Sequence record: OK254197.1 | Direction: 5' to 3' (one strand) | DNA: 64,000 bases | Source: Escherichia phage PNJ1902 | Part shown: one piece after another, positions 3,749 through 43,201 of the stretch | Layout: each line of letters opens with the position of its first letter | Position numbering within the stretch: position 1 is the first letter of the stretch | Notes under the pieces: generated by a model | The model's database searches: none | Told to the model about the DNA's origin: nothing | Seen by the model: only the letters and a program-made list of their open reading frames with translations | Translations under genes and position numbers: made by a program

Positions 3749-5268
3749 ATATCGCTGGCCTGTTCACCTGTTGAATTTTCAGTTTTGTCTTTCTTAGCAC
3801 GTTTAGGTTGAGCTGGCTTATCCTTCTCAATAGGGATAACGAACTCAGCTTCCATTTGAGATATATCTTCCATTGCTAGGTTGGTAGTGTTATCCATTCG
3901 CAGAGTTTCCCAGTTCATTTTAGGCATAAACTTCACGCTATCAGAAGAACGAGTCTTAACGAAGTCAAACATAATAGCACCTTGACCATTATCAGCTTTT
4001 GCAGCATTAAGATTAGCAGCCATGTCAGCGGAATCAAGAATCCCCTTTGACATACGTGTTCTACCGTCTTGATCGATCTGGTAAGGAGCTACACCAGCCA
4101 CGTTATGTTTCTGGCAGATAGATTTGAAAGACGAGCTAACAACCATCTGTTCTTTCCAGTCATACATATCAATGGTTTTAGAGTCTGGAAGTCGGGTTTG
4201 GTTAATATAGTCCAGTAAAGCTACTGTAACTTTATCTCCATATCTAGCAACTAATTTATTTAGTTCTACGTCAACTGTTGTAATAGACAGCTCAGGGTCA
4301 TAAACAATAATCATAGGAGTATGTAGTTCATATCCCTCTATTAGCTTACTCTCCATATCGTAGAAATCGCTCATCTTAGCCATTGTGTACTGTTTAACGA
4401 AGCTATCGAAAAGCTCTTCACCTCCATTAAACATTCTAGCTCTAGTTCTGGCCAATCTCAACAGAGCTGCACCTTCTAGAGTATTATTACGCATTGCTAA
4501 TGCTGATACACCAGCTAACATGGCTAGATTACGTCTAAATACTTCATGTTCTTTCATCTCAATTGAGAAGTATGGAGCAATATCTCCATTCAAATATTGC
4601 TGAACCTGTATGTTTGAACAGATAATGGATTTACCAGTACCACGCCAACCACCAAGCAGTAACGTTTCTGTGCGAGCTAAACCAATTTGAGCGTCGAACT
4701 CATTACAAATACCAAGAGCGATTAAGTTCAGTTTGGTATCTTCTTCTCTCTGGAAAATACGCATGTTATCTGCGTTGAATACTTTTCCAGTATTCGTTAC
4801 TTTCTCTTCTAATTTTAAGTGAAGGGAGGCAACTCGGTTGAGAATTTCTCCCTGATCCAGCATTGTTAAATCTTGAAGCACGTCTGTTTCTAGAAGCTTC
4901 AGGAATAAATCCTGCGTATATTCGGCTTCTAGGACTTCAAGTGCCTGTTCCATGCTCACTTCTGGAATTTGAGTGTTAGCTAAGACGACTAGAGCTTGAG
5001 AAAGGCGGGCGTTCCTATTAGCTTCAAGCATAAGTGCGTCAATGGACGGCATTGTGTTATATTTTTTATAATAATTCTGGACGGCTTGGTAAATTGAGGA
5101 GAAAGCGTCATTAAAATGATCTTTATGCAGTTTTGAGAATGTTTCCAATGCTATTTGCTTCTGTTCGGAAGCTAGAAGCATCTTCAACACTACAGCTTGC
5201 ACGTTAAACAAGGTCATTCTCCTTTGCACGCTTTCGTGCCTTCTAAATGCAAAAAGGGGAAGGAGCAT
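3745..5268 (-). CDS. DnaB-like replicative helicase
   Basis: 507 aa; Walker A GGWRGTGKS; overlaps primase by 4 nt; RBS GGAGG upstream. Confidence 0.65.
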   Translation of the reverse strand: MLLPLFAFRRHESVQRRMTLFNVQAVVLKMLLASEQKQIALETFSKLHKDHFNDAFSSIYQAVQNYYKKYNTMPSIDALMLEANRNARLSQALVVLANTQIPEVSMEQALEVLEAEYTQDLFLKLLETDVLQDLTMLDQGEILNRVASLHLKLEEKVTNTGKVFNADNMRIFQREEDTKLNLIALGICNEFDAQIGLARTETLLLGGWRGTGKSIICSNIQVQQYLNGDIAPYFSIEMKEHEVFRRNLAMLAGVSALAMRNNTLEGAALLRLARTRARMFNGGEELFDSFVKQYTMAKMSDFYDMESKLIEGYELHTPMIIVYDPELSITTVDVELNKLVARYGDKVTVALLDYINQTRLPDSKTIDMYDWKEQMVVSSSFKSICQKHNVAGVAPYQIDQDGRTRMSKGILDSADMAANLNAAKADNGQGAIMFDFVKTRSSDSVKFMPKMNWETLRMDNTTNLAMEDISQMEAEFVIPIEKDKPAQPKRAKKDKTENSTGEQASDI

Positions 5269-5299
5269 AGCCCCCTCCCCTTAGGTTTAATTTACCAGA

Positions 5300-6067
5300 T
5301 TATTCAGCAGCCGCAGCTTTTGCATCCAGTTTAGCACGCTTAGCGGCACCATCATAGTCCTTAGCAACCAGACCACGACGAGACAGCATAGATTTAACAC
5401 CGCGCTCAGACTTACCAGTTTTCTCAGCGATCTCAGCAACAGTCATGTTAACCAGATCCAGACCTTCTAACAGATCTTCACGAGTTTTAGCACTTGAAGT
5501 TTCCTGTACCGGCATAGCAGCGATACGACCTTCACGAAGCAGGCTCAGAGCTTTACCACGGATCTGCTTGATATTACGACCGAAGTGAGCAGCGATAGCT
5601 TCAATAGTAGCACCAGCAACAACCTGATTAACAAAATCAGTTTCTTCATCCGGAGTAAAGGAACGAACAGCGGCAGCTTTTTCGGTTGGCTTAACAGAAG
5701 CGGTCATTTCCAGACTCAGGATCTTACCCTGTACCTGTTTAGCACCGAACTGACCACCAGCTACAGCAGCAGCGATTTCAGCATAGGTATACTGACCAGC
5801 ATGAGCGTTCAGGAAATCAACCAGTTCAGCTTCCTGCTCAGGAGTCCACGGGGATTTCTGTACTTCGTTAGCTTTTTGTACTTCAAAACCTTCTTTACGC
5901 AGTTTAGAGCCAACAGAGCGAGCAGTAACATCTTTGCCAGTTTCAGCAGCCAGTTCAGCAGCGATAGCAGCTACTTGTTCTTGAGAGATTACAGCAACAC
6001 CCAGAGCAGTGGCTTTTGCTTTCAGAGACTCAGTTACACCTTCTACGTTCCAGTTCAGTTTAGACAT
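5300..6067 (-). CDS. Ala/Lys-rich DNA-binding protein (T5 D5-like)
   Basis: 255 aa, repetitive Ala-rich composition; position between ligase and helicase as in T5. Confidence 0.4.
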   Translation of the reverse strand: MSKLNWNVEGVTESLKAKATALGVAVISQEQVAAIAAELAAETGKDVTARSVGSKLRKEGFEVQKANEVQKSPWTPEQEAELVDFLNAHAGQYTYAEIAAAVAGGQFGAKQVQGKILSLEMTASVKPTEKAAAVRSFTPDEETDFVNQVVAGATIEAIAAHFGRNIKQIRGKALSLLREGRIAAMPVQETSSAKTREDLLEGLDLVNMTVAEIAEKTGKSERGVKSMLSRRGLVAKDYDGAAKRAKLDAKAAAAE

Positions 6068-6842
6068 TATTATTTTTCTCCAATAGTTCTTTAATCGACA
6101 GGATTTCTATCCCATTCGTTTCGGCTTTCTTATAAGATGAGGAAGAACGTTTTGATTCATCCTCACAGATTAGGTATTTGACGTCTTTAGTAACGGATTT
6201 CTTAACCGTATACCCTAGACTTTCTAAATAGTTTGTTGCATCCGTTCTATTTGCAAAATCTTGCAAAGATCCGGTAATACATACCGCGATTCCTTTTGGC
6301 TGGGCAACTAATTCATCTGTAATGATGATATTAGCTTTTGCACCTCTGATACCTGTTGAGAATTTCCACGGTAGTTCGATAACATCCTTGCCTTGTGGGG
6401 AATTTAGCCAGGCTTTATAGTTTTCTCCAGCCTTACCGTCAGCCTTCACATCGTGGAAGCTAGTGCAATTTTGGGATAATTTCTTTGCTGCAACCTCTCC
6501 AATTAGAGGGATTCCTAAAGAACCGAGAACTGAACCAAAGTCAATGTCTCCGCGAACTTTAGTATTTAATTCGCTAATTAACTTAGCGGCAACCTTGCTA
6601 CCCACGGCTCTAACCAAATCTTCTTCGGTTAGGTAAAATAGTTCTGAAATCTTCGTCAGCTCCAGCTTCTCAATAGTTTTTGGGCCAAAGCCCTTTAACT
6701 TCATTTTTGAACAGAAGTTCTCAATTAACTTACTTGATTGCGCTGGACAGTTGGACTTATTCCGACAGAATAATTGTCCGTTGACAAGATCTAGCTTAGA
6801 ACCACAAGAGGGACATTGTGTTGGAATTTCGATTTTCATCAA
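6060..6842 (-). CDS. NAD-dependent DNA ligase, C-terminal part (Zn finger, HhH, BRCT-like)
   Basis: 260 aa; CPSCGSKL...C Zn ribbon, HhH-like GFGPKTIEKL. Confidence 0.8.
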   Translation of the reverse strand: MMKIEIPTQCPSCGSKLDLVNGQLFCRNKSNCPAQSSKLIENFCSKMKLKGFGPKTIEKLELTKISELFYLTEEDLVRAVGSKVAAKLISELNTKVRGDIDFGSVLGSLGIPLIGEVAAKKLSQNCTSFHDVKADGKAGENYKAWLNSPQGKDVIELPWKFSTGIRGAKANIIITDELVAQPKGIAVCITGSLQDFANRTDATNYLESLGYTVKKSVTKDVKYLICEDESKRSSSSYKKAETNGIEILSIKELLEKNNNV

Positions 6843-6869
6843 ATTTCTTCCTTATCAATTTATATAAAT

Positions 6870-6898
6870 ATTATAGCAAGTATTTAAGCATTTAGCAA
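6870..6898 (-). promoter_or_regulatory. sigma70 promoter (T5 early type) for ligase C-part gene
   Basis: RC: TTGCTA-17-TATAAT followed by ATAAATTGA leader. Confidence 0.7.
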
Positions 6899-7041
6899 CT
6901 ACAATTTTAACTAACTTTGCTTACCCTCGCCATAACTTTCTATCCCTCAACTGAATGATAATAGTATATACCTAAGCGGCGAAAATGTCAATAACCACTT
7001 TATAATTCCGATATGGTAGATGGGTAGCAAAGGGTTATGTA

Positions 7042-8013
7042 TTAATCGTATACTCGCTCTACGATGCACGGGATTACACCACCAGCACGAATTACTCGAA
7101 TCTGGCAACCGATCTCTAGATCGAGAGAGTTAATATAATCAACGTTATTAAGAGTCGCTTTAACAATTGTAGCATCATCAATAATTACCGGTTCGAAATA
7201 ACCAACTGGAGTTACTTTACCAGAAGCCCCTACCTGCCATTCAACTTTAGTAAGAGTTGTAATCTCGCCTTCTTCATCCTCTTTAATAGCGAATGCTCCA
7301 CGAGGAAATTTATTAGTCCAGCCTTCACGGAAGAATTTGTTGTTGTCATTAATACGAACAACTTTACCATCCGTCGGAATCCATTTAAAGAAGGAACGCA
7401 CATTAACAACTGTTAAGAAGTCCTCATTCTCTAGCCAGAGCATATCTTTTAAATACGATTCTGTAATACCTACAGATTCAGCAGAACACTGGATACCGTA
7501 TGCAACGAAGATTAGACCACCTTCTCCGATACGTTGTACGAAATCATCACTATCTTTGAGGTTAATAGCACCAGAGGCAAAGTTACGTTTATTTTCTACT
7601 TCTTTTGTAATTAGAACTTCACCAGTGATTTGAGTAGGTACTTTTTGGGAAATCTTTTTAGGGATGTTCAGCAATCTTACGTTGCTTGTGACATCATTCC
7701 CTAGAATGCCATTACCACGAGTTAGTGCTTGAACAAATTCGCCATTAATATATAACAGAGAAATCGCACAACCATCTAACTTATCAGTTTCTACCTGACC
7801 TAATGGATTAAACGGAGGTTTATCTCCACGATTATAATAAACTTTCTGTAAAGAATACATACGATACAGATGTGGAATATCTCCCTTAGGCCCAATCTCT
7901 TCTTCTAACGGAAATCTTTTAATCAGACGATCATATTCTTCGTCAGAGATTAAAGACATGCCTTGATAATATGCTTCTTGACAGCGTTTAATAAATTCTT
8001 TTACATTAGTCAT
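7042..8013 (-). CDS. NAD-dependent DNA ligase, N-terminal part (adenylation + OB fold)
   Basis: 323 aa; adenylation motif KLDG (…TDKLDGCAISLLY…). Confidence 0.8.
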   Translation of the reverse strand: MTNVKEFIKRCQEAYYQGMSLISDEEYDRLIKRFPLEEEIGPKGDIPHLYRMYSLQKVYYNRGDKPPFNPLGQVETDKLDGCAISLLYINGEFVQALTRGNGILGNDVTSNVRLLNIPKKISQKVPTQITGEVLITKEVENKRNFASGAINLKDSDDFVQRIGEGGLIFVAYGIQCSAESVGITESYLKDMLWLENEDFLTVVNVRSFFKWIPTDGKVVRINDNNKFFREGWTNKFPRGAFAIKEDEEGEITTLTKVEWQVGASGKVTPVGYFEPVIIDDATIVKATLNNVDYINSLDLEIGCQIRVIRAGGVIPCIVERVYD

Positions 8014-8044
8014 TTATTTATATCTCTCATCAATTTATATAAAT

Positions 8045-8073
8045 ATTATATAATAAAACTGAGTTGAAAGCAA
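8045..8073 (-). promoter_or_regulatory. sigma70 promoter for ligase N-part gene
   Basis: RC: TTGCTT-17-TATAAT, conserved leader ATAAATTGATGAGAG. Confidence 0.7.
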
Positions 8074-8083
8074 ATACATTTAT

Positions 8084-8116
8084 AAAGAAAAAGCCAAGAA
8101 CTAGGCATTCTTGGCT
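8084..8116 (-). terminator. Intrinsic terminator (minus strand)
   Basis: GCCAAGAA...TTCTTGGC hairpin followed on minus strand by T-run. Confidence 0.55.
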
Positions 8117-8409
8117 TTGAGTTCTTCAGCTCGTTTCTGTACTTCATGTAAAACCTCAGATTCACTAAGAATCTGTGTAAACGCATAGAAAAGCTGTGAT
8201 GTTGTTTCTAGGGTGTAAGGAAAAGAGAAGCCAGATTTCGTTGGAAACCATTCATCATTAATATCAAGAAGCCAGTAACGAATACCCATGTATAGATTCC
8301 CACGAAATTCAGATACTGTTAATCTTACTTGTTCTCCCTCCTTCTCCCAGAGTATGATGGACTGGTCATCAACGTGTCCTTCATAGTTTTGATTTACCTG
8401 TTCGCTCAT
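8101..8409 (-). CDS. Hypothetical protein
   Basis: 102 aa ORF in minus-strand operon. Confidence 0.5.
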   Translation of the reverse strand: MSEQVNQNYEGHVDDQSIILWEKEGEQVRLTVSEFRGNLYMGIRYWLLDINDEWFPTKSGFSFPYTLETTSQLFYAFTQILSESEVLHEVQKRAEELKAKNA

Positions 8410-32548: not shown

Positions 32549-32623
32549 CGGGGTGTAGTCTAAGGGAGAGGCAGGAGTCTTCTAAATTCCTTTATGCAGG
32601 TTCGAATCCTGTCACCTCGGCCA
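32549..32623 (+). tRNA. tRNA-Arg (anticodon UCU), tentative
   Basis: Hand fold: acceptor CGGGGTG/CACCTCG, anticodon stem GGAGT/ATTCC loop CTTCTAA, T-arm GCAGG-TTCGAAT-CCTGT, encoded CCA. Confidence 0.45.
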
Positions 32624-32657
32624 ATTTTATTAACTGTAACTAAAACAAAGGAAATAT

Positions 32658-33605
32658 ATGTTTGCTACTAAAAACACTAAAGAACTGACTTATGAGCAAA
32701 AATTAATGCGTAATATCAAACGTTGGGGTATTGGGGCTGCAGTTGGTTTGGTAGGTTTAGTTCTGGCTCTTAACTCTTACACTGTTGTTCAAGACGGTAC
32801 TGTTAAAACCCAGACTTTCCTGGGTAAAGTTGACCCTAGCCCAGTATTACCCGGCTTTCATATTGTAAATCCTTTTGCTTCTTTCGATACTTTTAGTACT
32901 AAAGATATTGCTCTAAAATTAGATAAACTTCAGGTTCCTAGTCAGGATAAGTTTAAATCCACTGTTGACCTGACTGTTATGTTGCAGTTTGATGGTTCTA
33001 AGGCACCGATTAACCGTATTAATGCAGGTACTCAGGATCAAGCATTAGACAAATATGTAACTGAAAAATTACTGTCTACTATTCGTGAGTTTGGTAAGTC
33101 TGTACCTAAAGCACAAGATTTATTTGATGCTAAAATTCAGGCTCAATTGCAAACCGCAATTCAACAGGAAGTTGAAGAGTATGCACGCCCATATGGTTAC
33201 ACAGTTAAGCAGGTGTTTCTTCAGGATATTACTTTGCCACCGGTAATCATGGAACAGGTACAGAATACCAAAGTTCGTGAAGAGCAAGTTAACGCTGCGA
33301 AAGCTGAACTTGCCCGCGTTGAACAGGAAGCACAGCAAAAAGTTAAACAAGCAGAAGCAGATCGTGAAGCTCGCAACAACCAAGCTATTGCTAATGAACG
33401 TGACGCAGATGCTAAACTGTACGCAGCTAAGAAAGAAGCTGAAGCTAACGCCGCACTGCAACGTACCATTACTCCTGAGATGATTCGTTGGAAACAACTG
33501 GAAGTTGAAATGATTCGTGCTCAGAAGTATCAAGGTGGTGTACCTCAGACTGTAGTTGGCACTGGCTATGATGGTCAAATGATTATGGATATGCGTAACA
33601 AGTAA
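32658..33605 (+). CDS. SPFH/band-7 (prohibitin-like) membrane protein
   Basis: 315 aa; N-terminal TM helix, SPFH-like core, C-terminal Ala/Gln/Glu coiled coil. Confidence 0.55.
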   Translation: MFATKNTKELTYEQKLMRNIKRWGIGAAVGLVGLVLALNSYTVVQDGTVKTQTFLGKVDPSPVLPGFHIVNPFASFDTFSTKDIALKLDKLQVPSQDKFKSTVDLTVMLQFDGSKAPINRINAGTQDQALDKYVTEKLLSTIREFGKSVPKAQDLFDAKIQAQLQTAIQQEVEEYARPYGYTVKQVFLQDITLPPVIMEQVQNTKVREEQVNAAKAELARVEQEAQQKVKQAEADREARNNQAIANERDADAKLYAAKKEAEANAALQRTITPEMIRWKQLEVEMIRAQKYQGGVPQTVVGTGYDGQMIMDMRNK

Positions 33606-33630
33606 TAGTTACACGTAATCTTCGAACTAA

Positions 33631-33662
33631 GCCCGCGTTTTCTCCGAGAGCGCGGGCTTTTC
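33631..33662 (+). terminator. Intrinsic terminator
   Basis: GCCCGCG...CGCGGGC hairpin + TTTT. Confidence 0.7.
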
Positions 33663-33683
33663 TGTATTTAAGGCAAAAGAAAA

Positions 33684-33712
33684 AGCCCCTAAGTCTTTCG
33701 ACTAGGGGCTTT
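33684..33712. terminator. Bidirectional hairpin terminator candidate
   Basis: AGCCCCTAAG...CTAGGGGCT flanked by A-run upstream and T downstream; lies between convergent genes. Confidence 0.5.
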
Positions 33713-33929
33713 ACTGTTTGGTTCTTTAGAACCATATACTCTTGTTACAGCAACCACCCATACGGGAGGCCAATCTTGACTGAAAATCTACTCTAGGGGG
33801 CAGGATAAGAGTAGGCTTAAAGGCAAACGGATTGAACGCCGGTATTTGCGTAAACATTGCTGGAGAGCAACAACGTGCTACAGGCATTGGGCAGCACGAA
33901 ACAGATTTTCTGCAACACATAATTCCTCC

Positions 33930-34346
33930 TTAGGAGTTATTACCACCATTTTGAGCTTTTGCAACTTGGCTTTGGCAGAAGCTATTAAACTTACCCATAA
34001 GTGATACAAGCTGCTTCCCATCCTCTGTCTTTGCGAAGTCTTCGAAAAGGGCTAGTACTGCCTGTCCTTCCGCAGAAACCTGCGGTTGTTGGGTTTGTTG
34101 CTGAACTTGCTGCTGCGGCATCTGTTGCTGCATTTGTTGGGGCATTTGCGACTGCCCGCTCATTTGCTGCATCATTTGCATAGGACTCACACTTCCAGGG
34201 TTTTGCTGGAGTTGTTGCTGCATCTGTTGCGCTTCTGCTAAACGCTGTTGCAATTGTTGTAAGTAGGGGTTATCCAGACCCGGAATGGGCTGCTGGGAGC
34301 CCATACTTTGATTAAGTCCGTTATTTACAAAACCATATTTACTCAT
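33930..34346 (-). CDS. Gln-rich low-complexity protein
   Basis: 138 aa; long Q/M-rich repeats. Confidence 0.45.
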   Translation of the reverse strand: MSKYGFVNNGLNQSMGSQQPIPGLDNPYLQQLQQRLAEAQQMQQQLQQNPGSVSPMQMMQQMSGQSQMPQQMQQQMPQQQVQQQTQQPQVSAEGQAVLALFEDFAKTEDGKQLVSLMGKFNSFCQSQVAKAQNGGNNS

Positions 34347-34367
34347 AATGGGCTCCTCCCCTTAATA

Positions 34368-35354
34368 TTAAGCCGGCAGTTTAGCCTGCAGACCAGCCAG
34401 AGTCTGAGTGATAGCACCAAGACTTAAAGCGATTTGATTAATTACCTGACCGTTAGCACCACTACCCGCAGCGATTGCTTCACGTAGGCGACATGCGTCT
34501 AACTCGTCCTGGATACGTGCAGTAGTTACACCAGCGATCGCAGTCTGAAGTTCACAGCAACATTCAGCGATCTGACGTTCCAGAGAGTTCTGGTTAGCAC
34601 ACATCTGAGCCTGAACAGCGGCAAACTGGTTATTAGTTTGTAAAGTCTGCTGGAAAGCGATCTGTGCAGAATCAAACTTATCTTGTGCACGAGCTATCTG
34701 GTTAGCTGCGAAAGATTGATCAATCTGGCGAGAAAGATCGAACTGACCCTGAATAACGTTGCGAGTTTCCTGGCAGATCTGATTAGACAGATTAGCACCT
34801 GTACCATAGATCGTAGTTAGTACAGACTGAGTATCACGGCTCTGGTTTTGGGATGTCTGGCTAAAACCATTGTTAACTGCGCTTAAAACAGCCCCAGTAC
34901 CCTGGTTAGCTTCTGTACGAGTAGTGTTAATAGCTGCTAGAATACTAGCGGTATCTTGATTCTGAAGTACTGCATCAACTGCGCTACCATCACCAACTAC
35001 ACCACGTCCACCGAATCCACCGAAACCACCGAATCCGCCTGTTAATAGAGCACCGATTAGGATAGCTCCGAATAGTCCCATACCTTCACCACCGAAAGCA
35101 CCTGCGTTTGCTGGGTAACCACCTAGTAGGCCAGGGAAGCCACTAGTGAATACGTTTACTGGTTCTTGCATTTTATGTTTTCCATGTTTATGACAATGTT
35201 CATCATCGTCATCTTCTTCATCATCATGTTCACGATGTTTTTCTTCGTAGGCTCTGACCTTCTCCCACTTTTTCTTATCTGATTCCTCGTGACGGTGCAG
35301 TTCTGCTGCAACGCTAGCGACGGTCTCAGGACTCTTAGCTACTTCTTCTGTCAT
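34368..35354 (-). CDS. Gly-rich membrane-associated hypothetical protein
   Basis: 328 aa; acidic/His-rich N-terminus, GGFGGFGGFGG glycine-zipper segment, Q/A-rich coiled region. Confidence 0.5.
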   Translation of the reverse strand: MTEEVAKSPETVASVAAELHRHEESDKKKWEKVRAYEEKHREHDDEEDDDDEHCHKHGKHKMQEPVNVFTSGFPGLLGGYPANAGAFGGEGMGLFGAILIGALLTGGFGGFGGFGGRGVVGDGSAVDAVLQNQDTASILAAINTTRTEANQGTGAVLSAVNNGFSQTSQNQSRDTQSVLTTIYGTGANLSNQICQETRNVIQGQFDLSRQIDQSFAANQIARAQDKFDSAQIAFQQTLQTNNQFAAVQAQMCANQNSLERQIAECCCELQTAIAGVTTARIQDELDACRLREAIAAGSGANGQVINQIALSLGAITQTLAGLQAKLPA

Positions 35355-35419
35355 TTTTTAACACCTCCTAGTATATAGAAAATGTGTGTCTCTTTGATCA
35401 CTCATCCATAACATATACT

Positions 35420-35447
35420 TTACACTACCCCAACAAAAATGTCAAGG
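35420..35447 (-). promoter_or_regulatory. Putative sigma70 promoter
   Basis: RC: TTGACA-17-TAAAGT. Confidence 0.35.
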
Positions 35448-35561
35448 GGTCTTTAAAAATTGCCCCCGGATTTTTAGTGGGGTCACAAATTTTGGTCCTC
35501 ACCACTTATCTGCTACCCTTAAGTGCCCTATGATTTTCCTCTAAAAAGTTAAAAATTTTGA

Positions 35562-35590
35562 TTGCTTGAATGCTAAATTCTCTGTATAAT
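35562..35590 (+). promoter_or_regulatory. sigma70 promoter (T5 early type)
   Basis: TTGCTT-17-TATAAT + ATAAATTTGAGAGAGG leader. Confidence 0.7.
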
Positions 35591-35620
35591 ATATCTATAA
35601 ATTTGAGAGAGGAATAAGAT

Positions 35621-36139
35621 ATGAATGTTGATGAGCTAACACAGCACCTCTTATCTAGAGGATTTGATACAGATAAATATCATTGCTGGTTAAGCCCGGA
35701 AGGGTGGCTAACAGTCCCATTGTATGACTTCTCTGGGATGTTGCGGGGCTATCAGACGTATAATCCTTCTGCTCCAAAAGGGCATGGTAAGTGCCCCTTT
35801 GAGGCTAAATATTTTACCTACTCCACTACACAGTGTGTATGGGGACTAGAAACTCTCAATGGAGATGAAAAAGTAGTATTGATTGCTGAATCTGTATTTA
35901 AGGCAGTTGCATTACATAATGCTGGTTATCCAGCCCTAGCAATGTTGGGTTCTACCCCAGGAAAAGCGTTATTAAAGCAACTGAAATTACTACCTTTTAA
36001 ATTGGTAGCTGTCGGGGATAATGATCCTGCGGGTGAAAAATTTGCTAGAAAATTGAACGGCTTTGTTTCTCCTGTAGATGTGGATGAGATGTCTACCGAA
36101 AACTTGAAAAATTTTCTTGCTATGAAGCTAAATTTCTAA
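35621..36139 (+). CDS. Toprim-domain protein
   Basis: 172 aa; conserved Glu (LIAES) and DxD (GDNDPAG). Confidence 0.5.
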   Translation: MNVDELTQHLLSRGFDTDKYHCWLSPEGWLTVPLYDFSGMLRGYQTYNPSAPKGHGKCPFEAKYFTYSTTQCVWGLETLNGDEKVVLIAESVFKAVALHNAGYPALAMLGSTPGKALLKQLKLLPFKLVAVGDNDPAGEKFARKLNGFVSPVDVDEMSTENLKNFLAMKLNF

Positions 36140-36160
36140 TATAATATATCTTATAAATTC

Positions 36161-36249
36161 GGAAGAATAGCATAACGGTATTGCAGCAGATTGCTAATCT
36201 GTCGGTTTGAAATATAGCCTTGTGGGTTCGATTCCCACTTCTTCCGCCA
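36161..36249 (+). tRNA. tRNA-Ser (anticodon GCU), class II
   Basis: Hand fold: acceptor GGAAGAA/TTCTTCC, loop TTGCTAA, long variable arm, T-arm GTGGG-TTCGATT-CCCAC, CCA encoded. Confidence 0.55.
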
Positions 36250-36255
36250 GATTTT

Positions 36256-36333
36256 GGTTCTCAAGCTCATATGGTATGAGCACCCGGCTCATAACCGGAA
36301 GGTACGTAGGTTCGAATCCTCGGGGAGCCACCA
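36256..36333 (+). tRNA. tRNA with CAU anticodon (Met/Ile2), tentative
   Basis: Acceptor GGTTCTC/GGGAGCC (2 GU), loop CTCATAA, TTCGAAT T-loop with weak 3-bp T-stem. Confidence 0.45.
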
Positions 36334-36351
36334 ATTAAATAGAGGTCACAA

Positions 36352-36540
36352 ATGGATCTATATATAGTTTATGTTGTGTTTATTCAAGATAGAGAATACC
36401 CGGATGAATATAAAAAAGGATATAGGCTAGCCAGAGCTACCTCTGAAGCCCAAGCTATGGATAAAGTGGCAGATTATATGATTACGGTAGAAAACGTACA
36501 CTATATAGACTACCTCGAAGCCTCAAAAGTAATTGACTAA
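36352..36540 (+). CDS. Hypothetical protein
   Basis: 62 aa ORF. Confidence 0.45.
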   Translation: MDLYIVYVVFIQDREYPDEYKKGYRLARATSEAQAMDKVADYMITVENVHYIDYLEASKVID

Positions 36541-36549
36541 GGAGACTAT

Positions 36550-36735
36550 ATGTCCAAGTTTCAAGAACTCAAGCAAGAGCTAGAAGAATGTGCCTGCCCT
36601 GAGTGTAGGGGAATTGGTGAAAGTTCTGATGCAGAAGCAGGAGATACTTTTTGCAATATCTGGGTTTGCCCAAATTGCAGTGGTACAGGTATTAATCCTA
36701 ACTGTGGTATTTCCCTAGATATTGAACGAGGATAA
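36550..36735 (+). CDS. Cys-rich small protein
   Basis: 61 aa; CxxC...CxxC pattern. Confidence 0.45.
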   Translation: MSKFQELKQELEECACPECRGIGESSDAEAGDTFCNIWVCPNCSGTGINPNCGISLDIERG

Positions 36736-36836
36736 TACCTATGAAACTAAAAGATTATTATATTGGTTGGTTTGTGGGACTAGTAGTAGGATTTTCACTA
36801 GGCTATAATATGTATCAACTAATAAACTGATTACAC

Positions 36837-36913
36837 GGGGGTGTAATCGAATTGGCATAGGTACTGGACTTAAAATTCAGGTTTTGTGGGTTCGAATCCC
36901 ACCACCCCTACCA
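36837..36913 (+). tRNA. tRNA with apparent UAA anticodon but class I (short variable arm) architecture
   Basis: Acceptor GGGGGTG/CACCCCT, anticodon stem CTGGA/TTCAG loop CTTAAAA, 5-nt variable loop, T-arm GTGGG-TTCGAAT-CCCAC, CCA encoded. Confidence 0.45.
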
Positions 36914-37088
36914 AATTAAGGAAATAAGATGTATAGACATCCACCTCCGCCAACACGTCGTTCTAGGGAAGTTATCCTCATGGAATTGACTAAAAACTTC
37001 AAGGCAACTCTTGAAGACAGAGATCTAGGCACGGATGAAGACATTGATTTTATTTGTAGACTATTAAAGATGAAACTGGAGAAAAAAC

Positions 37089-37295
37089 ATGGCTAATCCT
37101 GAAATTACAGCACAACGTTTCATGCTTAAAGGCATGATTGCTGAGGCAGGTATAACTCAAGAGGTTGCAGATTTTCATAAGCAATTTCTTGACATTATAA
37201 CTCTAGCTAAAGAGACTGGAGAAAAAGAGCATGGAGCGGCAATTATGGCTATATCTCTTATTAGTCTAGACTTGGCTGAAGAATCTGGAATTTAG
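37089..37295 (+). CDS. Hypothetical protein
   Basis: 68 aa ORF. Confidence 0.45.
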   Translation: MANPEITAQRFMLKGMIAEAGITQEVADFHKQFLDIITLAKETGEKEHGAAIMAISLISLDLAEESGI

Positions 37296-37325
37296 CTCCT
37301 CCAAACAGAATTTTTAAAAATGTAC

Positions 37326-37355
37326 TTGCCTTTTGCTTTAAATTTCTGATATAAT
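37326..37355 (+). promoter_or_regulatory. sigma70 promoter
   Basis: TTGCCT-18-TATAAT. Confidence 0.6.
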
Positions 37356-37385
37356 AGTTATATAAATTGATGAAGGAGTTAATGA

Positions 37386-37661
37386 ATGCAAAATCGTGTT
37401 ATAGCAGCTGGTATTGAAAGTGCAATCTGTAAATCCTGGGAAGGCTGGGAAGGTGAGATTGAATGGCTTTATTTCTACGATGTAGAACTTCTGCCGGAAA
37501 TTAAAGCTAAATGTATTGAAGCTGGCATGGCTCCAGATGCAAAAGCTGATATTGATATTTCAATGTCTGAACTTAAAGGTCGTGTAATTACTGTTAGTGA
37601 TGAGGGCGAAGAAGTTTTCGAACTTCCGTTCTCCTTAACTGTCGCTCCTAAGTTCGACTAA
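37386..37661 (+). CDS. Hypothetical protein
   Basis: 91 aa ORF with RBS AAGGAG. Confidence 0.5.
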   Translation: MQNRVIAAGIESAICKSWEGWEGEIEWLYFYDVELLPEIKAKCIEAGMAPDAKADIDISMSELKGRVITVSDEGEEVFELPFSLTVAPKFD

Positions 37662-37692
37662 CTAATACAGCACTGAGCAAGTTCTTTAAAAT

Positions 37693-37726
37693 TTGACTTG
37701 CTCAGTGCCTTAAAACTTGGTATAAT
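37693..37726 (+). promoter_or_regulatory. sigma70 promoter driving tRNA cluster
   Basis: TTGACT/TTGCTC-17-TATAAT. Confidence 0.65.
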
Positions 37727-37793
37727 AGTTATCTAATTTGGAAACATATTTAAAAGTGTTTAAATTAGAATTTTTTTGAATACTTCTAAATAT

Positions 37794-37881
37794 GGGGAAA
37801 TATTCTGTAAGTGGTAGCAGAGCTGACTGTAAATCAGTTGTCATTGCGACTCGGGTGGTTCGACTCCATCTTTCCCCACCA
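37794..37881 (+). tRNA. tRNA-Tyr (anticodon GUA), class II
   Basis: Acceptor GGGGAAA/TTTCCCC, loop CTGTAAA, ~15-nt variable arm, T-loop TTCGACT, CCA. Confidence 0.6.
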
Positions 37882-37887
37882 ATTTAA

Positions 37888-37964
37888 GTCCTGTTAGACA
37901 AACTGGTAAAGTCACTACCCTTTCAAGGTAGGATTTGCGGGTTCGATCCCCGCACAGGACGCCA
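37888..37964 (+). tRNA. tRNA-Glu (anticodon UUC)
   Basis: Acceptor GTCCTGT/ACAGGAC, anticodon stem CTACC/GGTAG loop CTTTCAA, T-arm GCGGG-TTCGATC-CCCGC, CCA. Confidence 0.65.
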
Positions 37965-37972
37965 ATTCCTGC

Positions 37973-38049
37973 ATTCCTAGAGTGTTACTGGACAGCATGT
38001 CGGTCTCCAAAACCGTACGGTCTAGGTTCGAGTCCTAGTAGGTTTGCCA
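37973..38049 (+). tRNA. tRNA-Trp (anticodon CCA), acceptor stem with two U-U mismatches
   Basis: Anticodon arm CGGTCTCCAAAACCG as in E. coli tRNA-Trp; T-arm CTAGG-TTCGAGT-CCTAG; acceptor ATTCCTA/TAGGTTT. Confidence 0.5.
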
Positions 38050-38055
38050 AAATTT

Positions 38056-38130
38056 GCACCTTTAGCTGAGATGGATTAGCGCTTGCCTGAAGAGCTTGAG
38101 AGGTTCGTTCGATACGAACAGGGTGCACCA
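38056..38130 (+). tRNA. tRNA-Phe (anticodon GAA), tentative
   Basis: Acceptor GCACCTT/AGGGTGC, loop CTGAAGA at canonical position, anticodon stem with two U-U mismatches, T-arm GTTCG-TTCGATA-CGAAC. Confidence 0.45.
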
Positions 38131-38147
38131 ATTTGAAGGAGCTGCTT

Positions 38148-38420
38148 ATGCATCCTGAAAACTTCTTTATTTACTGCGCGGATAAGTCGCTGAAACGTAG
38201 AATTAACAAAGTCTATCATTATCGTGCTAGTCAACAGCCTTATGTATACGCTTTTGACGGTGATCACATTCCATTAGAACAATTATCTTGTGATTACATG
38301 ATATTGAAGAACTTTGACGAGACAAAGATCTCAAGCGTTCACAATCGACAGAATCCATTAACGTGGAAATATAAGAAGAAAAAGAAAGGCATCAAATTCT
38401 TAAAAAATGTAGTTGCTTAG
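38148..38420 (+). CDS. Hypothetical protein
   Basis: ~90 aa from ATG 38148 with RBS AAGGAG (table start 38133 is TTG). Confidence 0.5.
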   Translation: MHPENFFIYCADKSLKRRINKVYHYRASQQPYVYAFDGDHIPLEQLSCDYMILKNFDETKISSVHNRQNPLTWKYKKKKKGIKFLKNVVA

Positions 38421-38441
38421 TTTCCAAAAGTTCTGTATAAT
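38413..38441 (+). promoter_or_regulatory. sigma70 promoter
   Basis: TTGCTT-17-TATAAT. Confidence 0.65.
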
Positions 38442-38489
38442 AATTACATAAATTGAACTGGAGAAGCAACATGATAGAATAAGATAAAT

Positions 38490-38565
38490 CGACCGTTGGC
38501 TGAATGGCTTAGGCGAAGGATTGCAAATCCTTTTTATGTGAGTTCAAATCTCATGCGGTCGTCCA
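38490..38565 (+). tRNA. tRNA-Cys (anticodon GCA)
   Basis: Acceptor CGACCGT/GCGGTCG, anticodon stem AAGGA/TCCTT loop TTGCAAA, T-loop TTCAAAT, CCA. Confidence 0.6.
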
Positions 38566-38717
38566 ATTTGCTGAAAGAATTGTTTTAACAATTCAGGCAC
38601 GCGTAGGAACACTGTCTCCGTAATTGAAAGATGAGGCACGGTTTGGAGAGGTATGCCGCTACACGCTACGGTGCTAACTCCGTCTAGGTGAAAATCCTAG
38701 TCAGCAATATAAATTTA

Positions 38718-38800
38718 GGGTCGTTAGCCAAGCGGTTTGGCGGTGGACTGTTAATCCATGTCGAAAGACAACGTAGGTTCGAATCCTACACGGCCCGCCA
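38718..38800 (+). tRNA. tRNA with class II architecture (13-nt variable arm, G73) but apparent GUU anticodon
   Basis: Acceptor GGGTCGT/ACGGCCC, 3-bp D stem, anticodon stem GTGGA/TCCAT loop CTGTTAA, variable hairpin GTC-GAAA-GAC, T-arm GTAGG-TTCGAAT-CCTAC. Confidence 0.4.
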
Positions 38801-38902
38801 AATTCTGTGTAGAGTTAAGTAAACCGGTAGCCAACCAGCTATCATTGCTGACATCGAATTCAGCCACAGATACCATTTTCATTAATAACTGAGGAAACAA
38901 GC

Positions 38903-39088
38903 ATGTCCAAGAATGTAATTGCGCAGCTAGAAGTTCATCGTGATAGCACTATCAACAATATTGAAGTTGAGAAGAAATACATCGAAGAACTTAAACATGA
39001 TATACTAGTAAGTCTTAATCGTCTTAATGTACGAAAAGAGTTTCTTAAGGAACTTAATGCAGCTATTGAAAAACTCAAAGCTGAGTAA
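38903..39088 (+). CDS. Hypothetical protein
   Basis: 61 aa ORF with RBS GAGGAAACAAGC. Confidence 0.45.
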   Translation: MSKNVIAQLEVHRDSTINNIEVEKKYIEELKHDILVSLNRLNVRKEFLKELNAAIEKLKAE

Positions 39089-39097
39089 ATGAATTAT

Positions 39098-39174
39098 GCG
39101 ACAGGGGCTGGCTTGGTAATGGTACTCCCCTGTCACGGGAGAGAATGTGGGTTCGAATCCCATCGGTCGCGCCA
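39098..39174 (+). tRNA. tRNA-Asp (anticodon GUC)
   Basis: Anticodon stem CTCCC/GGGAG loop CTGTCAC, T-arm GTGGG-TTCGAAT-CCCAT, CCA. Confidence 0.6.
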
Positions 39175-39200
39175 AATTAAACTAGCACGAGAAATATGCT

Positions 39201-39548
39201 ATGATTAATGCTAAAGAAGAGTTGTTACTTGCCCTAAAGAATACTAATTCTGAAGTTAAGTGTATTAAGATAGAATTCGGTTATTATGGAGACAAAGAAG
39301 TTTGGGTATTGCCCGTAGGTTATACAGAAAAAGATATTGAAGATTTTCTAAATAATCTAGACTTTAAATATGACTCGGGTTTCGGTGGACAATTGCTTTA
39401 TGGTAACGTATGGTTTACTGATGGAACTTGGTTAGAACGTGGTGAATATGATGGTTCTGAATGGTGGGAGTATAAGACTACACCAGCAATCCCTGAGGAA
39501 TGCCGAACAATTAATGGTGAAGTAGATAATACTTTACGGTTAAACTAA
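39201..39548 (+). CDS. Hypothetical protein
   Basis: 115 aa ORF. Confidence 0.55.
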   Translation: MINAKEELLLALKNTNSEVKCIKIEFGYYGDKEVWVLPVGYTEKDIEDFLNNLDFKYDSGFGGQLLYGNVWFTDGTWLERGEYDGSEWWEYKTTPAIPEECRTINGEVDNTLRLN

Positions 39549-39553
39549 TAAAA

Positions 39554-39660
39554 TTTCAGTGCAGAACACGGAGCTAGCAATTCGGAAGTGCTGACTCATG
39601 ATAAGCTGCCTATGTACTTGCGAAGCGGTCGTGTCCAAGACTCGGACTCTTGCACTGAAA
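39554..39660 (+). ncRNA. Hairpin-closed structured element (candidate small RNA)
   Basis: 10-bp terminal inverted repeat TTTCAGTGCA/TGCACTGAAA enclosing ~87 nt, no ORF. Confidence 0.3.
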
Positions 39661-39670
39661 ACAATCAAAC

Positions 39671-39791
39671 ATTCTAGCGTGGTTGATGGGGAAACCAGCT
39701 TGGCTAGGGCAGAAGCTCGTTCGATTCGAGTGAAAGAATGGTTCTCGTAAGTCCGCACAAGTGATAACAGGTTCGAGTCCTGTCTAGAATG
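39671..39791 (+). ncRNA. tRNA-like cloverleaf with ~48-nt insertion in the anticodon loop
   Basis: Perfect 7-bp acceptor ATTCTAG/CTAGAAT, D stem TGGT/ACCA, anticodon stem GCTTG/CAAGT enclosing 55 nt, T-arm ACAGG-TTCGAGT-CCTGT. Confidence 0.4.
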
Positions 39792-39806
39792 ACACTATAA
39801 AGTTTA

Positions 39807-39920
39807 CTTATTATGTAGGTTCCGATAGATCGGCGGGTCTATTCTGGCATTTAAGAGAGGTCTCGCAAACTTCTTTGTCAGCCGTGGGGTTGGTAGCCTC
39901 CAGGTGGCCTACACAATAAG
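39807..39920 (+). ncRNA. Hairpin-closed structured element (candidate small RNA)
   Basis: 13-bp inverted repeat CTTATTATGTAGG/CCTACACAATAAG (12/13 match) enclosing ~88 nt with internal CCGATAGATCGG hairpin. Confidence 0.3.
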
Positions 39921-39940
39921 TAAATTTATTAAAAATTCAT

Positions 39941-39969
39941 TTGCTATTCTGCTTAATTCTCTGTATAAT
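39941..39969 (+). promoter_or_regulatory. sigma70 promoter (T5 early type)
   Basis: TTGCTA-17-TATAAT. Confidence 0.7.
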
Positions 39970-40001
39970 ATATTTTATAAAGTGAAGAGAAGGAAAGCAA
40001 A

Positions 40002-40160
40002 ATGAAACACAAGATAGCTCAAGTTTTTATGGCATTATGGTGTATGCCAGTAGCTATAACAGCATTTAATCTAGATACTTTTACTATAGAAGAAAAATGT
40101 ATCGGGTTAGTTAGCGGCTTTAGTATGCTGGGCTTATCCTTGTTGTGGTTGAAGAAATAA
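40002..40160 (+). CDS. Small hydrophobic protein
   Basis: 52 aa ORF with RBS AGGAAAG, hydrophobic core; below table cutoff. Confidence 0.4.
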   Translation: MKHKIAQVFMALWCMPVAITAFNLDTFTIEEKCIGLVSGFSMLGLSLLWLKK

Positions 40161-40164
40161 TATT

Positions 40165-40242
40165 CTCCGTGTAGCTCAGTTTGGCCAGAGCGTTTCGTTT
40201 GGGGCGATAGGGTCGGGGGTTCAAATCCTCCCACGGAGACCA
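40165..40242 (+). tRNA. tRNA-Pro (anticodon UGG)
   Basis: Acceptor CTCCGTG/CACGGAG, D arm GCTC...GAGC, loop TTTGGGG, T-loop TTCAAAT, CCA. Confidence 0.55.
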
Positions 40243-40248
40243 AACAAT

Positions 40249-40326
40249 TGCGGGTTAGATCTCTGGTAGAGATCGCTAGTCTCATAAGCTAGAAAGAGGT
40301 AGGTTCGATTCCTGCACCCGCTTCCA
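40249..40326 (+). tRNA. tRNA with CAU anticodon and unpaired 1:72 (initiator-like), tentative
   Basis: Acceptor TGCGGGT/ACCCGCT with U1-U72 mismatch, D stem GATC/GATC, anticodon stem CTAGT/GCTAG loop CTCATAA, CCA. Confidence 0.5.
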
Positions 40327-40346
40327 TTTTAATAGAGGATTTCGAA

Positions 40347-40514
40347 ATGAAAGTATTTCGATTAGTAGTAAGTGACAAACGTTTAGGTAAGAATACATCA
40401 AAATCCTTAATCGCTCATTACGGTAAAAATTGGGATGAAGTAATGGCAGAGTTTAATACTAATCACCCTTACTTGAAAGTTCACTCTATTAAAGAAGTAT
40501 ACAATGGTTACTAA
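40347..40514 (+). CDS. Small hypothetical protein
   Basis: 55 aa ORF with RBS GAGGA; below table cutoff. Confidence 0.35.
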   Translation: MKVFRLVVSDKRLGKNTSKSLIAHYGKNWDEVMAEFNTNHPYLKVHSIKEVYNGY

Positions 40515-40515
40515 T

Positions 40516-40594
40516 AGATCGCTAGCTCAATAGGTTTAGTAGCATCCGACTTTTAATCGGAAGGTTCTGGGTTCGAGTCCCAGGCGATCTACCA
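40516..40594 (+). tRNA. tRNA-Lys (anticodon UUU)
   Basis: Acceptor AGATCGC/GCGATCT, anticodon stem TCCGA/TCGGA loop CTTTTAA, T-arm CTGGG-TTCGAGT-CCCAG, CCA. Confidence 0.6.
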
Positions 40595-40612
40595 ATTTCA
40601 AGAAAAACGCAG

Positions 40613-40641
40613 TTGCTTGATGCTTAATTTCTTGTTATAAT
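40613..40641 (+). promoter_or_regulatory. sigma70 promoter
   Basis: TTGCTT-17-TATAAT; followed by ~230 nt ORF-free transcribed spacer. Confidence 0.65.
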
Positions 40642-40879
40642 ATTTATATAAATTGATGAGGAGAGATCCTCATCATAGTTCACTAAGGTATTAGCTCGAC
40701 CTAGGACTGGCTGCCAAAAAGCACGATCCCTTCTACTTGGGAGAAGTTCTAGATTAGTCCACTAGATTCAGCGGCAACTGAATAGTGTATCGGGTTTGCG
40801 AGATGACGCAGTTCCTTCCGCTCGAAGCGAAGGTGCTGTAGTTACGCCGAGCTAATAGCCTTAGTAAACTAAAGATTTT

Positions 40880-40954
40880 GGGCGGTTAGTTTATCTGGGA
40901 AAATACCTGACTTGCACTCAGGAGTGAGGAGTTCGACTCTCCTACTGTCCACCA
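40880..40954 (+). tRNA. tRNA-Ala (anticodon UGC)
   Basis: Anticodon stem CCTGA/TCAGG loop CTTGCAC, T-arm AGGAG-TTCGACT-CTCCT, CCA. Confidence 0.6.
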
Positions 40955-40972
40955 AATTAAAGGGTATGTAGT

Positions 40973-41473
40973 ATGAAGGTAGCTAAAAATGGGAGAAAAG
41001 ATAACTTAAATGAGTTAGAAATATTCCTCCACAATAACAAACTAGACGTAACCGCTAGTAATTACATGCAAATAGCTCTATGGTATAATGGGTATATAGT
41101 TAGGAAGGCCAATCCTAGTAAGGATAAGAAGTCAAATACATACCAAAAGAGACTAGAGCATAGCTATCAAAGATCCCTAAGAGTAGTACAGCTTTATTGT
41201 TATATCAATAATATAAATAATAAGCTGGGATATATTTATATAATATCTAATCCAGCTTTTCCAGGCTGGTTTAAAGTAGGAGCAGCCAAAGATGCTGAGA
41301 CTAGATTAAATACCTATCAAACATACTCCCCTTTTCGGGACTATGTATTAGAGTATTATAAACTAGTAGATAATTATGAACTCAAAGAAAAAGAAATCCT
41401 AAGTTCTTTTTCATCTAGAAATAATGAGTGGGTTCATGCTCCACTTGAAGAAATAATTGCTTGCGTGGCGTAA
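40973..41473 (+). CDS. T5orf172-domain (GIY-YIG-like) protein
   Basis: 166 aa; GYIYIISNP...KVGAA...RLNTYQT motif; 3' end overlaps tRNA-Leu start by ~15 nt. Confidence 0.55.
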   Translation: MKVAKNGRKDNLNELEIFLHNNKLDVTASNYMQIALWYNGYIVRKANPSKDKKSNTYQKRLEHSYQRSLRVVQLYCYINNINNKLGYIYIISNPAFPGWFKVGAAKDAETRLNTYQTYSPFRDYVLEYYKLVDNYELKEKEILSSFSSRNNEWVHAPLEEIIACVA

Positions 41474-41541
41474 TTGGTAGACGCGCGATCCTTAGGAGTT
41501 CGTGTTAATTCGTGTGGGTTCGAGTCCCTCCGCAAGCACCA
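41459..41541 (+). tRNA. tRNA-Leu (anticodon UAG), class II
   Basis: Perfect acceptor GCTTGCG/CGCAAGC, Leu-type D arm, loop CTTAGGA, long variable arm, A73, CCA. Confidence 0.55.
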
Positions 41542-41653
41542 AATTTGATGGTCAGAGTAAATTAAACCTACTATCTCGGTTGAGCTGTTTTAATGGGTTC
41601 GAATCCCAGCGAGGCGTAACTGCCTGGTGTGATAGGGGCATCATCTTATTATT

Positions 41654-41744
41654 GGAAGAGCAAATCGAATTGGCGACGAAAACCGCTTGGAAAGTGGCTG
41701 ACTGGTAAAACGGCTTGAGAGTTCAAATCTCTCCTCTTCCGCCA
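41654..41744 (+). tRNA. tRNA-Ser (anticodon GGA), class II
   Basis: Acceptor GGAAGAG/CTCTTCC, loop TTGGAAA, ~18-nt variable arm, T-arm GAGAG-TTCAAAT-CTCTC, G73, CCA. Confidence 0.5.
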
Positions 41745-41757
41745 AACAATTTATATG

Positions 41758-41851
41758 GTAGGTCAATCCAACGGCTGGCGCTGGACTCCGACTTGAAATC
41801 GGTTGATCGTAGTGATACGGTGTAAGGGTTCGATCCCCTTACCTACCTCCA
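41758..41851 (+). tRNA. tRNA-Ser (anticodon UGA), class II
   Basis: Perfect acceptor GGTAGGT/ACCTACC, loop CTTGAAA, long variable arm, T-loop TTCGATC, CCA. Confidence 0.5.
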
Positions 41852-41856
41852 AATCT

Positions 41857-41988
41857 TGAAGTATGCCGGAATTGGTAGACGGGGCTGCCTAAAAGGTTTA
41901 TAGAGAACATCCACTCTCTACAACATACCTCATAAAGCGGCTGAGATAAATGGTCTATCTCGTGAAGGTTCAAGTCCTTCTGCTTCTT
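41857..41988 (+). ncRNA. Class II tRNA-like cloverleaf with ~41-nt insertion in the anticodon loop
   Basis: Acceptor TGAAGTA/TGCTTCT (6/7, U1-U72), U8-G9, Leu-type D arm, anticodon stem GCTGC/GCGGC enclosing 48 nt, variable hairpin GAGATA...TATCTC, T-arm GAAGG-TTCAAGT-CCTTC; no encoded CCA. Confidence 0.4.
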
Positions 41989-42102
41989 GATACATCTATG
42001 GCTCAAAGTGTAACGGTGCTATTTGATGCTCTTAGTAAGACTTCCCCGACATGCGTTCGGGAGTAAGCTGCTAAGGCTAGGGTAGAAGAGTTTCGGAGAG
42101 CC

Positions 42103-42222
42103 GCCACAATTGAAAATTCGTACTCGTCTTGAGCTGCGTGCAATAGGAGATAACTTGATTAGTATTCTAGAACATGCTAATTGAGGAAGGTTTCGCTAAC
42201 CCTGCGAGTTTTCAATTGTGGC
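42103..42222 (+). ncRNA. Hairpin-closed structured element abutting tRNA-His
   Basis: 14-bp perfect inverted repeat GCCACAATTGAAAA/TTTTCAATTGTGGC enclosing ~92 nt; right arm overlaps tRNA-His 5' end. Confidence 0.3.
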
Positions 42223-42294
42223 TATATCATAATTGGTTAATGATCCTGATTGTGAATCAGGCCTATGTGGATTCGAATTCCACTAGCCACCCCA
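42218..42294 (+). tRNA. tRNA-His (anticodon GUG)
   Basis: Perfect acceptor GTGGCTA/TAGCCAC, anticodon stem CCTGA/TCAGG loop TTGTGAA, T-arm GTGGA-TTCGAAT-TCCAC, C73, CCA. Confidence 0.6.
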
Positions 42295-42319
42295 AATTAA
42301 CTTAAATAGGAAATAAAAT

Positions 42320-42514: not shown

Positions 42515-42526
42515 AATAAAAATTAT

Positions 42527-42602: not shown

Positions 42603-42608
42603 AATAAT

Positions 42609-42684: not shown

Positions 42685-42692
42685 AACAATAA

Positions 42693-42768: not shown

Positions 42769-42784
42769 ACTTTAAGGAAACGTT

Positions 42785-43193: not shown

Positions 43194-43201
43194 CGGGTTC
43201 T

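Follow-up and report, generated by a model that had tools for sequence, protein, structure and literature searches.

A two-subunit NAD-dependent DNA ligase in a T5-like Escherichia phage: LigA very probably divided at the linker between OB fold and zinc finger

Why does Escherichia phage PNJ1902 encode its NAD-dependent DNA ligase (LigA) in two pieces? In the 64,000 nucleotides of sequence record OK254197.1 analysed here (the window), which sequence matches of the ligase region assign to a T5-like phage (Demerecviridae, Tequintavirus), the enzyme is spread over two open reading frames (ORFs), ligA and ligB. Such an arrangement could reflect a broken gene, halves that are rejoined into one chain, two proteins with separate tasks, or an enzyme built from two subunits. 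Here we report that the last is very probably the case: ligA and ligB form a natural two-subunit ligase of the T5 type, in which a one-chain LigA was cut once, at the linker between OB fold and zinc finger, in the ancestor of the family, and which is transcribed with host sigma-70. The two genes are as follows.

7042-8013, minus strand: ligA, subunit A, 323 residues, with domain Ia, a nucleotidyltransferase (NTase) domain (motif I, K78-L-D-G) and an OB fold (ORF, Pfam, PHROGs, NCBIfam, alignment)
6060-6839, minus strand: ligB, subunit B, 259 residues, with a zinc finger (C9, C12, C25, C31), an HhH region, a low-confidence linker (164-178) and a BRCT domain (ORF, Pfam, PHROGs, NCBIfam, alignment, AlphaFold2)

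An earlier, sequence-only reading had placed an adenylation and OB-fold half with a KLDG motif at 7042-8013, and this holds. The ORF matches Pfam DNA_ligase_aden (PF01653, E 2e-23) and DNA_ligase_OB (PF03120, E 3.6e-22, residues 252-321), residues 213-320 are aligned by phmmer to the OB regions of solved LigAs, and the lysine of the motif is Lys78. When the A and B subunits of six Demerecviridae are aligned to E. coli LigA and to the one-chain enzyme of Yersinia phage YerA41, K78-L-D-G corresponds to E. coli K115-L-D-G and is invariant in all eight sequences. E. coli K115, D117, G118, R136, E173, R200, D285 and K314 are all retained in subunit A, the last five as R99, E132, R143, D215 and K244. 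Residues Y22, H23, D32, Y35 and D36 of E. coli LigA bind nicotinamide mononucleotide (NMN) and mark the use of NAD+ over ATP; domain Ia of subunit A keeps four of them (Y15, D24, Y27 and D28), with Y16 in place of H23.

The zinc-finger and HhH half, previously placed at 6060-6842, was right as to the ORF and these domains but not as to the start, and a BRCT domain is present as well. The ORF would encode 260 residues from a TTG at 6842 and 259 from an ATG at 6839; we take the ATG as the start because it lies 7 nt from the ribosome-binding site (RBS) and agrees with the MKIQIPT start of PDB chain 9hu3_B. At its start subunit B carries a four-cysteine zinc finger (CxxC...C...C; MKIEIPTQCPSCGS...FCRNKSNCPAQ) whose ligands C9, C12, C25 and C31 are aligned by HMMER to E. 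coli C408, C411, C426 and C432 and are invariant in 26 homologues. Pfam adds a BRCT match (E 5e-8) and an HhH_2 match. An AlphaFold2 model of subunit B (mean predicted local distance difference test score, pLDDT, 87.8) contains a zinc ribbon, helices in the HhH region, the low-confidence linker and a BRCT fold, and resembles the C-terminal parts of LigA and BRCT domains; Foldseek matches it to 9hu3_B with E 8e-26 and 54% identity. A stretch at about residues 133-160 (GKAGEN..W..S..G.....LPW.F) is partly conserved in enterobacterial, Proteus and Providencia phages, with only K136, W144 and G150 near-invariant over all 26 homologues. It sits at the position of the last HhH repeats of E. coli LigA and is followed by the variable linker and then by the BRCT domain; it may be a surface for binding subunit A or for contacting DNA.

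Alignment to bacterial LigA, which had been proposed as the way to define the split point, locates it to the residue. D323 of subunit A corresponds to E. coli S393 and M1 of subunit B to E394, so that the break falls in the short linker from OB fold to zinc finger, in which the phage pair is without six residues relative to E. coli LigA. Alignment and PHROGs both place the end of subunit A exactly at the OB fold and the start of subunit B exactly at the zinc finger. Each subunit is matched end to end by a PHROGs family of its own, A by phrog_3359 (1-325 of 325, E 5e-176) and B by phrog_3498 (1-255 of 256, E 7e-137). On the profile of the one-chain phage LigAs (phrog_3869, 656 positions) they fall one behind the other, A spanning 9-381 and B 388-654, as they do on NCBIfam TIGR00575 (652 positions; A 63-378, B 388-651). 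Matches of this order lie far above chance level.

Compared with E. coli LigA (PDB 2OWO; TIGR00575), the phage pair has the same order of domains (Ia-NTase-OB-Zn-HhH-BRCT) and shares the catalytic lysine, most active-site residues and the four zinc cysteines, but it consists of two polypeptides and is about 90 residues shorter in total, having lost sequence in the Ia-NTase linker, the NTase domain and the HhH region. The one-chain LigAs of jumbo and other phages (phrog_3869), that of YerA41 among them, are homologous to the window pair over both halves but fused, and the YerA41 protein is without the zinc-finger cysteines that subunit B carries.

Could the two ORFs be the remains of a single ligA, broken by a frameshift or nonsense mutation, or an error of sequencing or assembly? 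The one fact in favour is that bacteria and other phages, among them YerA41 (637 residues), make LigA as a single chain. The halves, however, stand 202 bp of non-coding DNA apart, which is not a point lesion; ligB has its own ATG, RBS and promoters; and both halves are well conserved as proteins. The layout is also widespread. Matches to the 2.3-kb region were found in 515 phage records, 430 of which span 80% of it or more. The top matches reach about 98% identity, Shigella phage SSP1 and Salmonella phage L6jm among them, and all come from Tequintavirus or other T5-like phages; many of the matching records are annotated with subunits A and B. In every member of the Demerecviridae sampled, from seven genera or lineages, the split falls at the same residue, across a gap of 192-1359 bp that holds between zero and three extra genes.

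T5 (Tequintavirus): gap of 202 bp, no genes in the gap
Klebsiella phage VAC51 (Sugarlandvirus): gap of 199 bp, no genes in the gap
Providencia phage PR1 (Priunavirus): gap of 192 bp, no genes in the gap
Proteus phage 2 (Novosibvirus): gap of 344 bp, one ORF of 55 residues (L006, 3492-3659)
Vibrio phage D239 (unclassified): gap of 443 bp, one ORF of 98 residues (L007, 3457-3753)
Vibrio phage River4 (Thalassavirus): gap of 1359 bp, three genes, one of them DprA-like (recombination mediator) (L008, 3469-4672)

Over six genera the termini are the same, subunit A (about 320-335 residues) ending after the OB fold and subunit B (about 250-260 residues) beginning at the zinc finger. A layout shared by more than 430 independent genomes and by distant genera, in some of them with whole genes between the halves, leaves a broken gene or a sequencing error a negligible probability; the inserted genes of the Vibrio and Proteus phages exclude frameshift, intron and sequencing error alike. 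The gap acts as an insertion site for unrelated genes in these phages. No homing endonuclease, as a possible cause of the split, was found among the gap ORFs of the Proteus and Vibrio phages, which belong instead to families of unknown function or encode the DprA-like protein.

The best 120 of 628 homologues of subunit B, from 5.8 billion proteins, are all free-standing down to 49% identity; 118 of these 120 are 247-263 residues long and two are truncated entries, and most lie on contigs about 110 kb long. Among one-chain relatives even the nearest (YerA41 and jumbo phages) share only 25-30% identity with subunit A. Because the split is the same family-wide, the B homologues stand free and the one-chain relatives are distant, sequence comparison indicates a single, old fission that has since been kept stably.

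A second explanation is that the halves, though encoded apart, are joined into a one-chain LigA after transcription or translation, by a group I or II intron, by bypassing or by trans-splicing of a split intein. Phages do use introns, inteins and bypassing, and translational bypassing occurs in gene 60 of T4. A search of positions 5900-8300 against Rfam (E<=1) found no intron or other family, its only hit being a chance microRNA match outside the spacer, and the spacer RNA folds no better than its shuffles (z = -0.59); on these results an intron or other structured RNA in the spacer was rejected. Inteins and bypassing were rejected in turn because the junction has no spare residues, such as intein fragments would need. 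The spacer itself is variable and can carry three protein genes, and the solved homologue consists of two separate chains of 339 and 248 residues. We therefore regard joining as extremely unlikely. The earlier conclusion that the split is neither a frameshift nor an intron is thus borne out by hundreds of records, by the constant split residue, by the genes inserted between the halves and by the lack of an Rfam match or significant fold.

That homologue, the ligase of Providencia phage PR1 (PDB 9HU3/9I5I), comes from another genus (Priunavirus) and has the two-chain architecture and the split point of the window pair at about 55-60% identity. Its chain A (339 residues) matches window A with E 8.6e-104, and its chain B (248 residues) matches window B with E 6e-81. 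Over 244 residues the chain B sequence, as given in the HMMER alignment, shows 100% identity to the ligB product of two Providencia phages, PR1 and PSTCR5. The Foldseek table lists the entry, with release date 2026-01-14, under the title 'PR1 phage heterodimeric DNA ligase in complex with 21-mer nicked DNA containing phage nick sequence'. Closer still is T5, whose subunit A is 99.1% identical to that of the window (ligA/ligB, AAS77162/AAS77163 and AAU05253/AAU05254) and which shares the neighbouring PC4-like gene, D5 and the DnaB-like D6; we found no difference of substance between the two loci. Wang et al. (2005, Virology 332:45) were the first to describe the T5 pair, and subunits A and B are listed in PMC3632103 and PMC4319617. 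The proposal of a natural two-subunit LigA is accordingly well supported, by the conserved split, the promoters annotated in T5 and the solved heterodimer on nicked DNA.

By analogy with the PR1 heterodimer, as named in the title of its entry, the subunits of the window would assemble into an active enzyme. Subunit A would self-adenylylate with NAD+ in the manner of LigA-type enzymes that have lost their C-terminal part (another enzyme of this type, cut back to Ia-NTase-OB, retained self-adenylylation), and subunit B would contribute the Zn/HhH half of the DNA clamp together with the BRCT domain. The two would associate non-covalently around a nick, closing as one-chain LigA does (2OWO), and would seal it in phage replication and repair.

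How, then, are the two genes expressed? The spacer had been described as about 200 bp long with a full promoter and an RBS. Its length (6840-7041, 202 bp from the stop of ligA to the ATG of ligB) and the RBS stand; the single promoter gives way to two sites. In the GenBank record of T5 (AY543070), promoters P-K28b and P-K28a are annotated between ligA (T5.116) and ligB (T5.117), with another promoter upstream of ligA, and the window spacer is identical to that of T5 in the alignment, annotated promoters included. The features of the unit, in order of transcription around the two genes given above, are these.

8090-8118, minus strand: terminator-like hairpin and T-run, 3' of the PC4-like gene (8101-8409) (sequence scan)
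8029-8073, minus strand: putative ligA promoter of the T5 early class, -35 TTGCTT (8073-8068), 17-nt spacer, -10 TATAAT (8050-8045), then the conserved leader ATTTATATAAATTGAT (sequence reading and recurrent 22-nt motif)
6937-7011, minus strand: P-K28b equivalent, -35 TTGACA (6991-6986), 17 nt, -10 TATACT (6968-6963) (T5 annotation mapped via alignment, and consensus scan)
6844-6918, minus strand: P-K28a equivalent, -35 TTGCTA (6898-6893), 17 nt, TG-extended -10 TATAAT (6875-6870), conserved leader (T5 annotation mapped via alignment, scan and motif)
6853-6847, minus strand: ligB RBS, AAGGAAG (sequence)
5300-6067, minus strand: gene for a D5-like DNA-binding protein (ORFs, T5 record)
5254-5282, minus strand: strong terminator-like hairpin of 13 pairs, 8 of them G-C, closing the ligA-ligB-D5 unit (sequence scan)

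Both spacer sites are of sigma-70 type in a consensus scan, TTGACA-17-TATACT (6991-6963) agreeing at 11 of 12 positions and TTGCTA-17-TATAAT with its extended TG (6898-6870) at 10 of 12. The 22-nt motif TATAATATTTATATAAATTGAT, made up of the -10 hexamer and leader of P-K28a (6854-6875), recurs identically upstream of ligA (8050-8029). At up to 3 mismatches the window holds nine copies against none expected: those at 6854-6875 and 8029-8050 on the minus strand, and seven more, at the starts of other genes, at 30224, 37350, 38436, 40636, 43502, 45827 and 53313 on the plus strand. A -35 hexamer of TTGCT type precedes every copy by 17 nt, and in most cases a Shine-Dalgarno sequence and an ATG follow within about 20 nt, though not in the 45 nt after the copy at 40636, which falls within the tRNA cluster. 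The motif is that of the early promoters of T5. VAC51, whose subunit A is 72% identical, has kept both promoter blocks, and the remaining spacer has drifted. An 8-codon ORF in the spacer (MARVSKVS, 6933-6907, minus strand, with GAGGGA upstream) was rejected as a gene, VAC51 having no ATG there and a 2-nt indel; the stretch is probably the leader of P-K28b.

The start of the ligA transcription unit is marked by the terminator-like site at 8118-8090. The T5 record annotates no terminator after the PC4-like gene and has a promoter feature between that gene and ligA. Between ligA and ligB the scan found no terminator-like site, the nearest being those at 8118-8090 and 5282-5254, whereas the PR1 record annotates a terminator right after ligA. 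In the window ligB is therefore probably transcribed from the ligA promoter too. That the two ORFs are separately promoted, as first proposed, agrees with the T5 annotation and the motif and is right, but it is probably not the whole story: ligA, ligB and D5 look like one unit with internal booster promoters. Promoter use is inferred from the sequence as follows. Host sigma-70 RNA polymerase would start at the T5 early promoter upstream of ligA and probably read through, as no terminator-like site separates the genes, and P-K28b and P-K28a would add to the transcription of ligB and of D5, which overlaps it. The stop of ligB and the D5 ATG (6067-6065) overlap by 8 nt (6060-6067, ATGTCTAA), and the two genes are probably translationally coupled in one operon. 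The overlap suggests that subunit B is coupled in translation to D5 rather than to subunit A.

This layout bears on a third explanation, that there is no obligate two-part ligase: subunit A alone would be a minimal ligase or adenylyl-transferase, and subunit B a separate HhH/BRCT factor for DNA binding or recruitment, expressed with D5. The promoters of ligB and its likely coupling to D5 instead of ligA fit such a division, as do the 1.4 kb between A and B in some Vibrio phages and the self-adenylylation that truncated LigA-type enzymes still perform. E. coli LigA without its Zn/HhH part, however, is unable to seal nicks. Subunits A and B also occur together in every family member sampled, and the PDB entry is of a heterodimer on nicked DNA. 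Two independent proteins are thus very unlikely, and we return to a ligase assembled from both.

Several points weigh against that reading of the locus. On TIGR00575 subunit A scores 175.8 bits and subunit B 109.7, and each, as well as their sum, is below the 444-bit equivalog cut-off; together with the two ORFs, these scores point to a divergent split branch and not to a canonical LigA equivalog. Mutational studies found K290 and R208 of E. coli LigA essential, and in all Demerecviridae A subunits aligned K290 is replaced by R (R220) and R208 by N or Q (N151 in the window); the alignment is weak in the stretch 148-212. N151 and R220 thus represent a family-wide change in the surroundings of the active site. 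As to separate promoters, the whole consensus scan returned 7 sites against 8.2 expected from shuffled sequence, and because it is no richer than the shuffles, it is the T5 annotation and the recurrent motif that carry the promoter call. The literature searched contained no biochemical reconstitution of the T5 A and B pair, no usable publication on 9HU3 and nothing usable on the promoter names K28a and K28b.

The wider neighbourhood is constant, the PC4-like gene, ligA, ligB, D5 and the DnaB-like helicase being common to the window and the records of T5, SSP1, VAC51, Proteus phage 2, D239, River4 and PR1. In many close relatives a small, optional ORF separates the PC4-like gene from ligA, of 62 residues in SSP1 (phrog_8267; L001, 1686-1874) and of 90 in HK6 (phrog_35018; L002, 1687-1959); there is none in the window (8014-8100) or in T5. 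Its presence or absence indicates an indel hot spot just upstream of ligA. The differing lengths of the best BLAST matches (2301 versus about 2480 or 2573 bp) are due to this ORF, and insertions in the A-B spacer were rejected as their cause. Elsewhere in the window, a cluster of 21 tRNA genes of the kind typical of T5-like phages lies at 32549-44287 on the plus strand, opposite to the replication genes.

The interpretation first reached from the letters alone is correct and not new. GenBank and the literature have included the split ligase of T5 since 2004-2005, hundreds of T5-like genomes are annotated with it as a matter of routine, and January 2026 saw the release of a crystal or cryo-EM entry for the heterodimer of a relative on nicked DNA. 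As an example of gene fission at a domain linker the locus is of textbook clarity, and it offers a natural template for the engineering of split ligases. What interest remains concerns the reason why the family has kept its ligase for so long in two separately promoted pieces. The split may be functional and not a neutral accident, with subunit B put under separate dosage or timing control by the two extra promoters and the D5 coupling, or with a second role for B as an HhH/BRCT factor of replisome recruitment; we consider this unlikely. If B were dosed separately, ligase activity would be tunable, for example so that the site-specific nicks of T5-type genomes are left unsealed late in infection. 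The words 'phage nick sequence' in the PDB title suggest that others are already examining this connection, and a tie between the divided ligase and the nicked genomes of these phages is possible.

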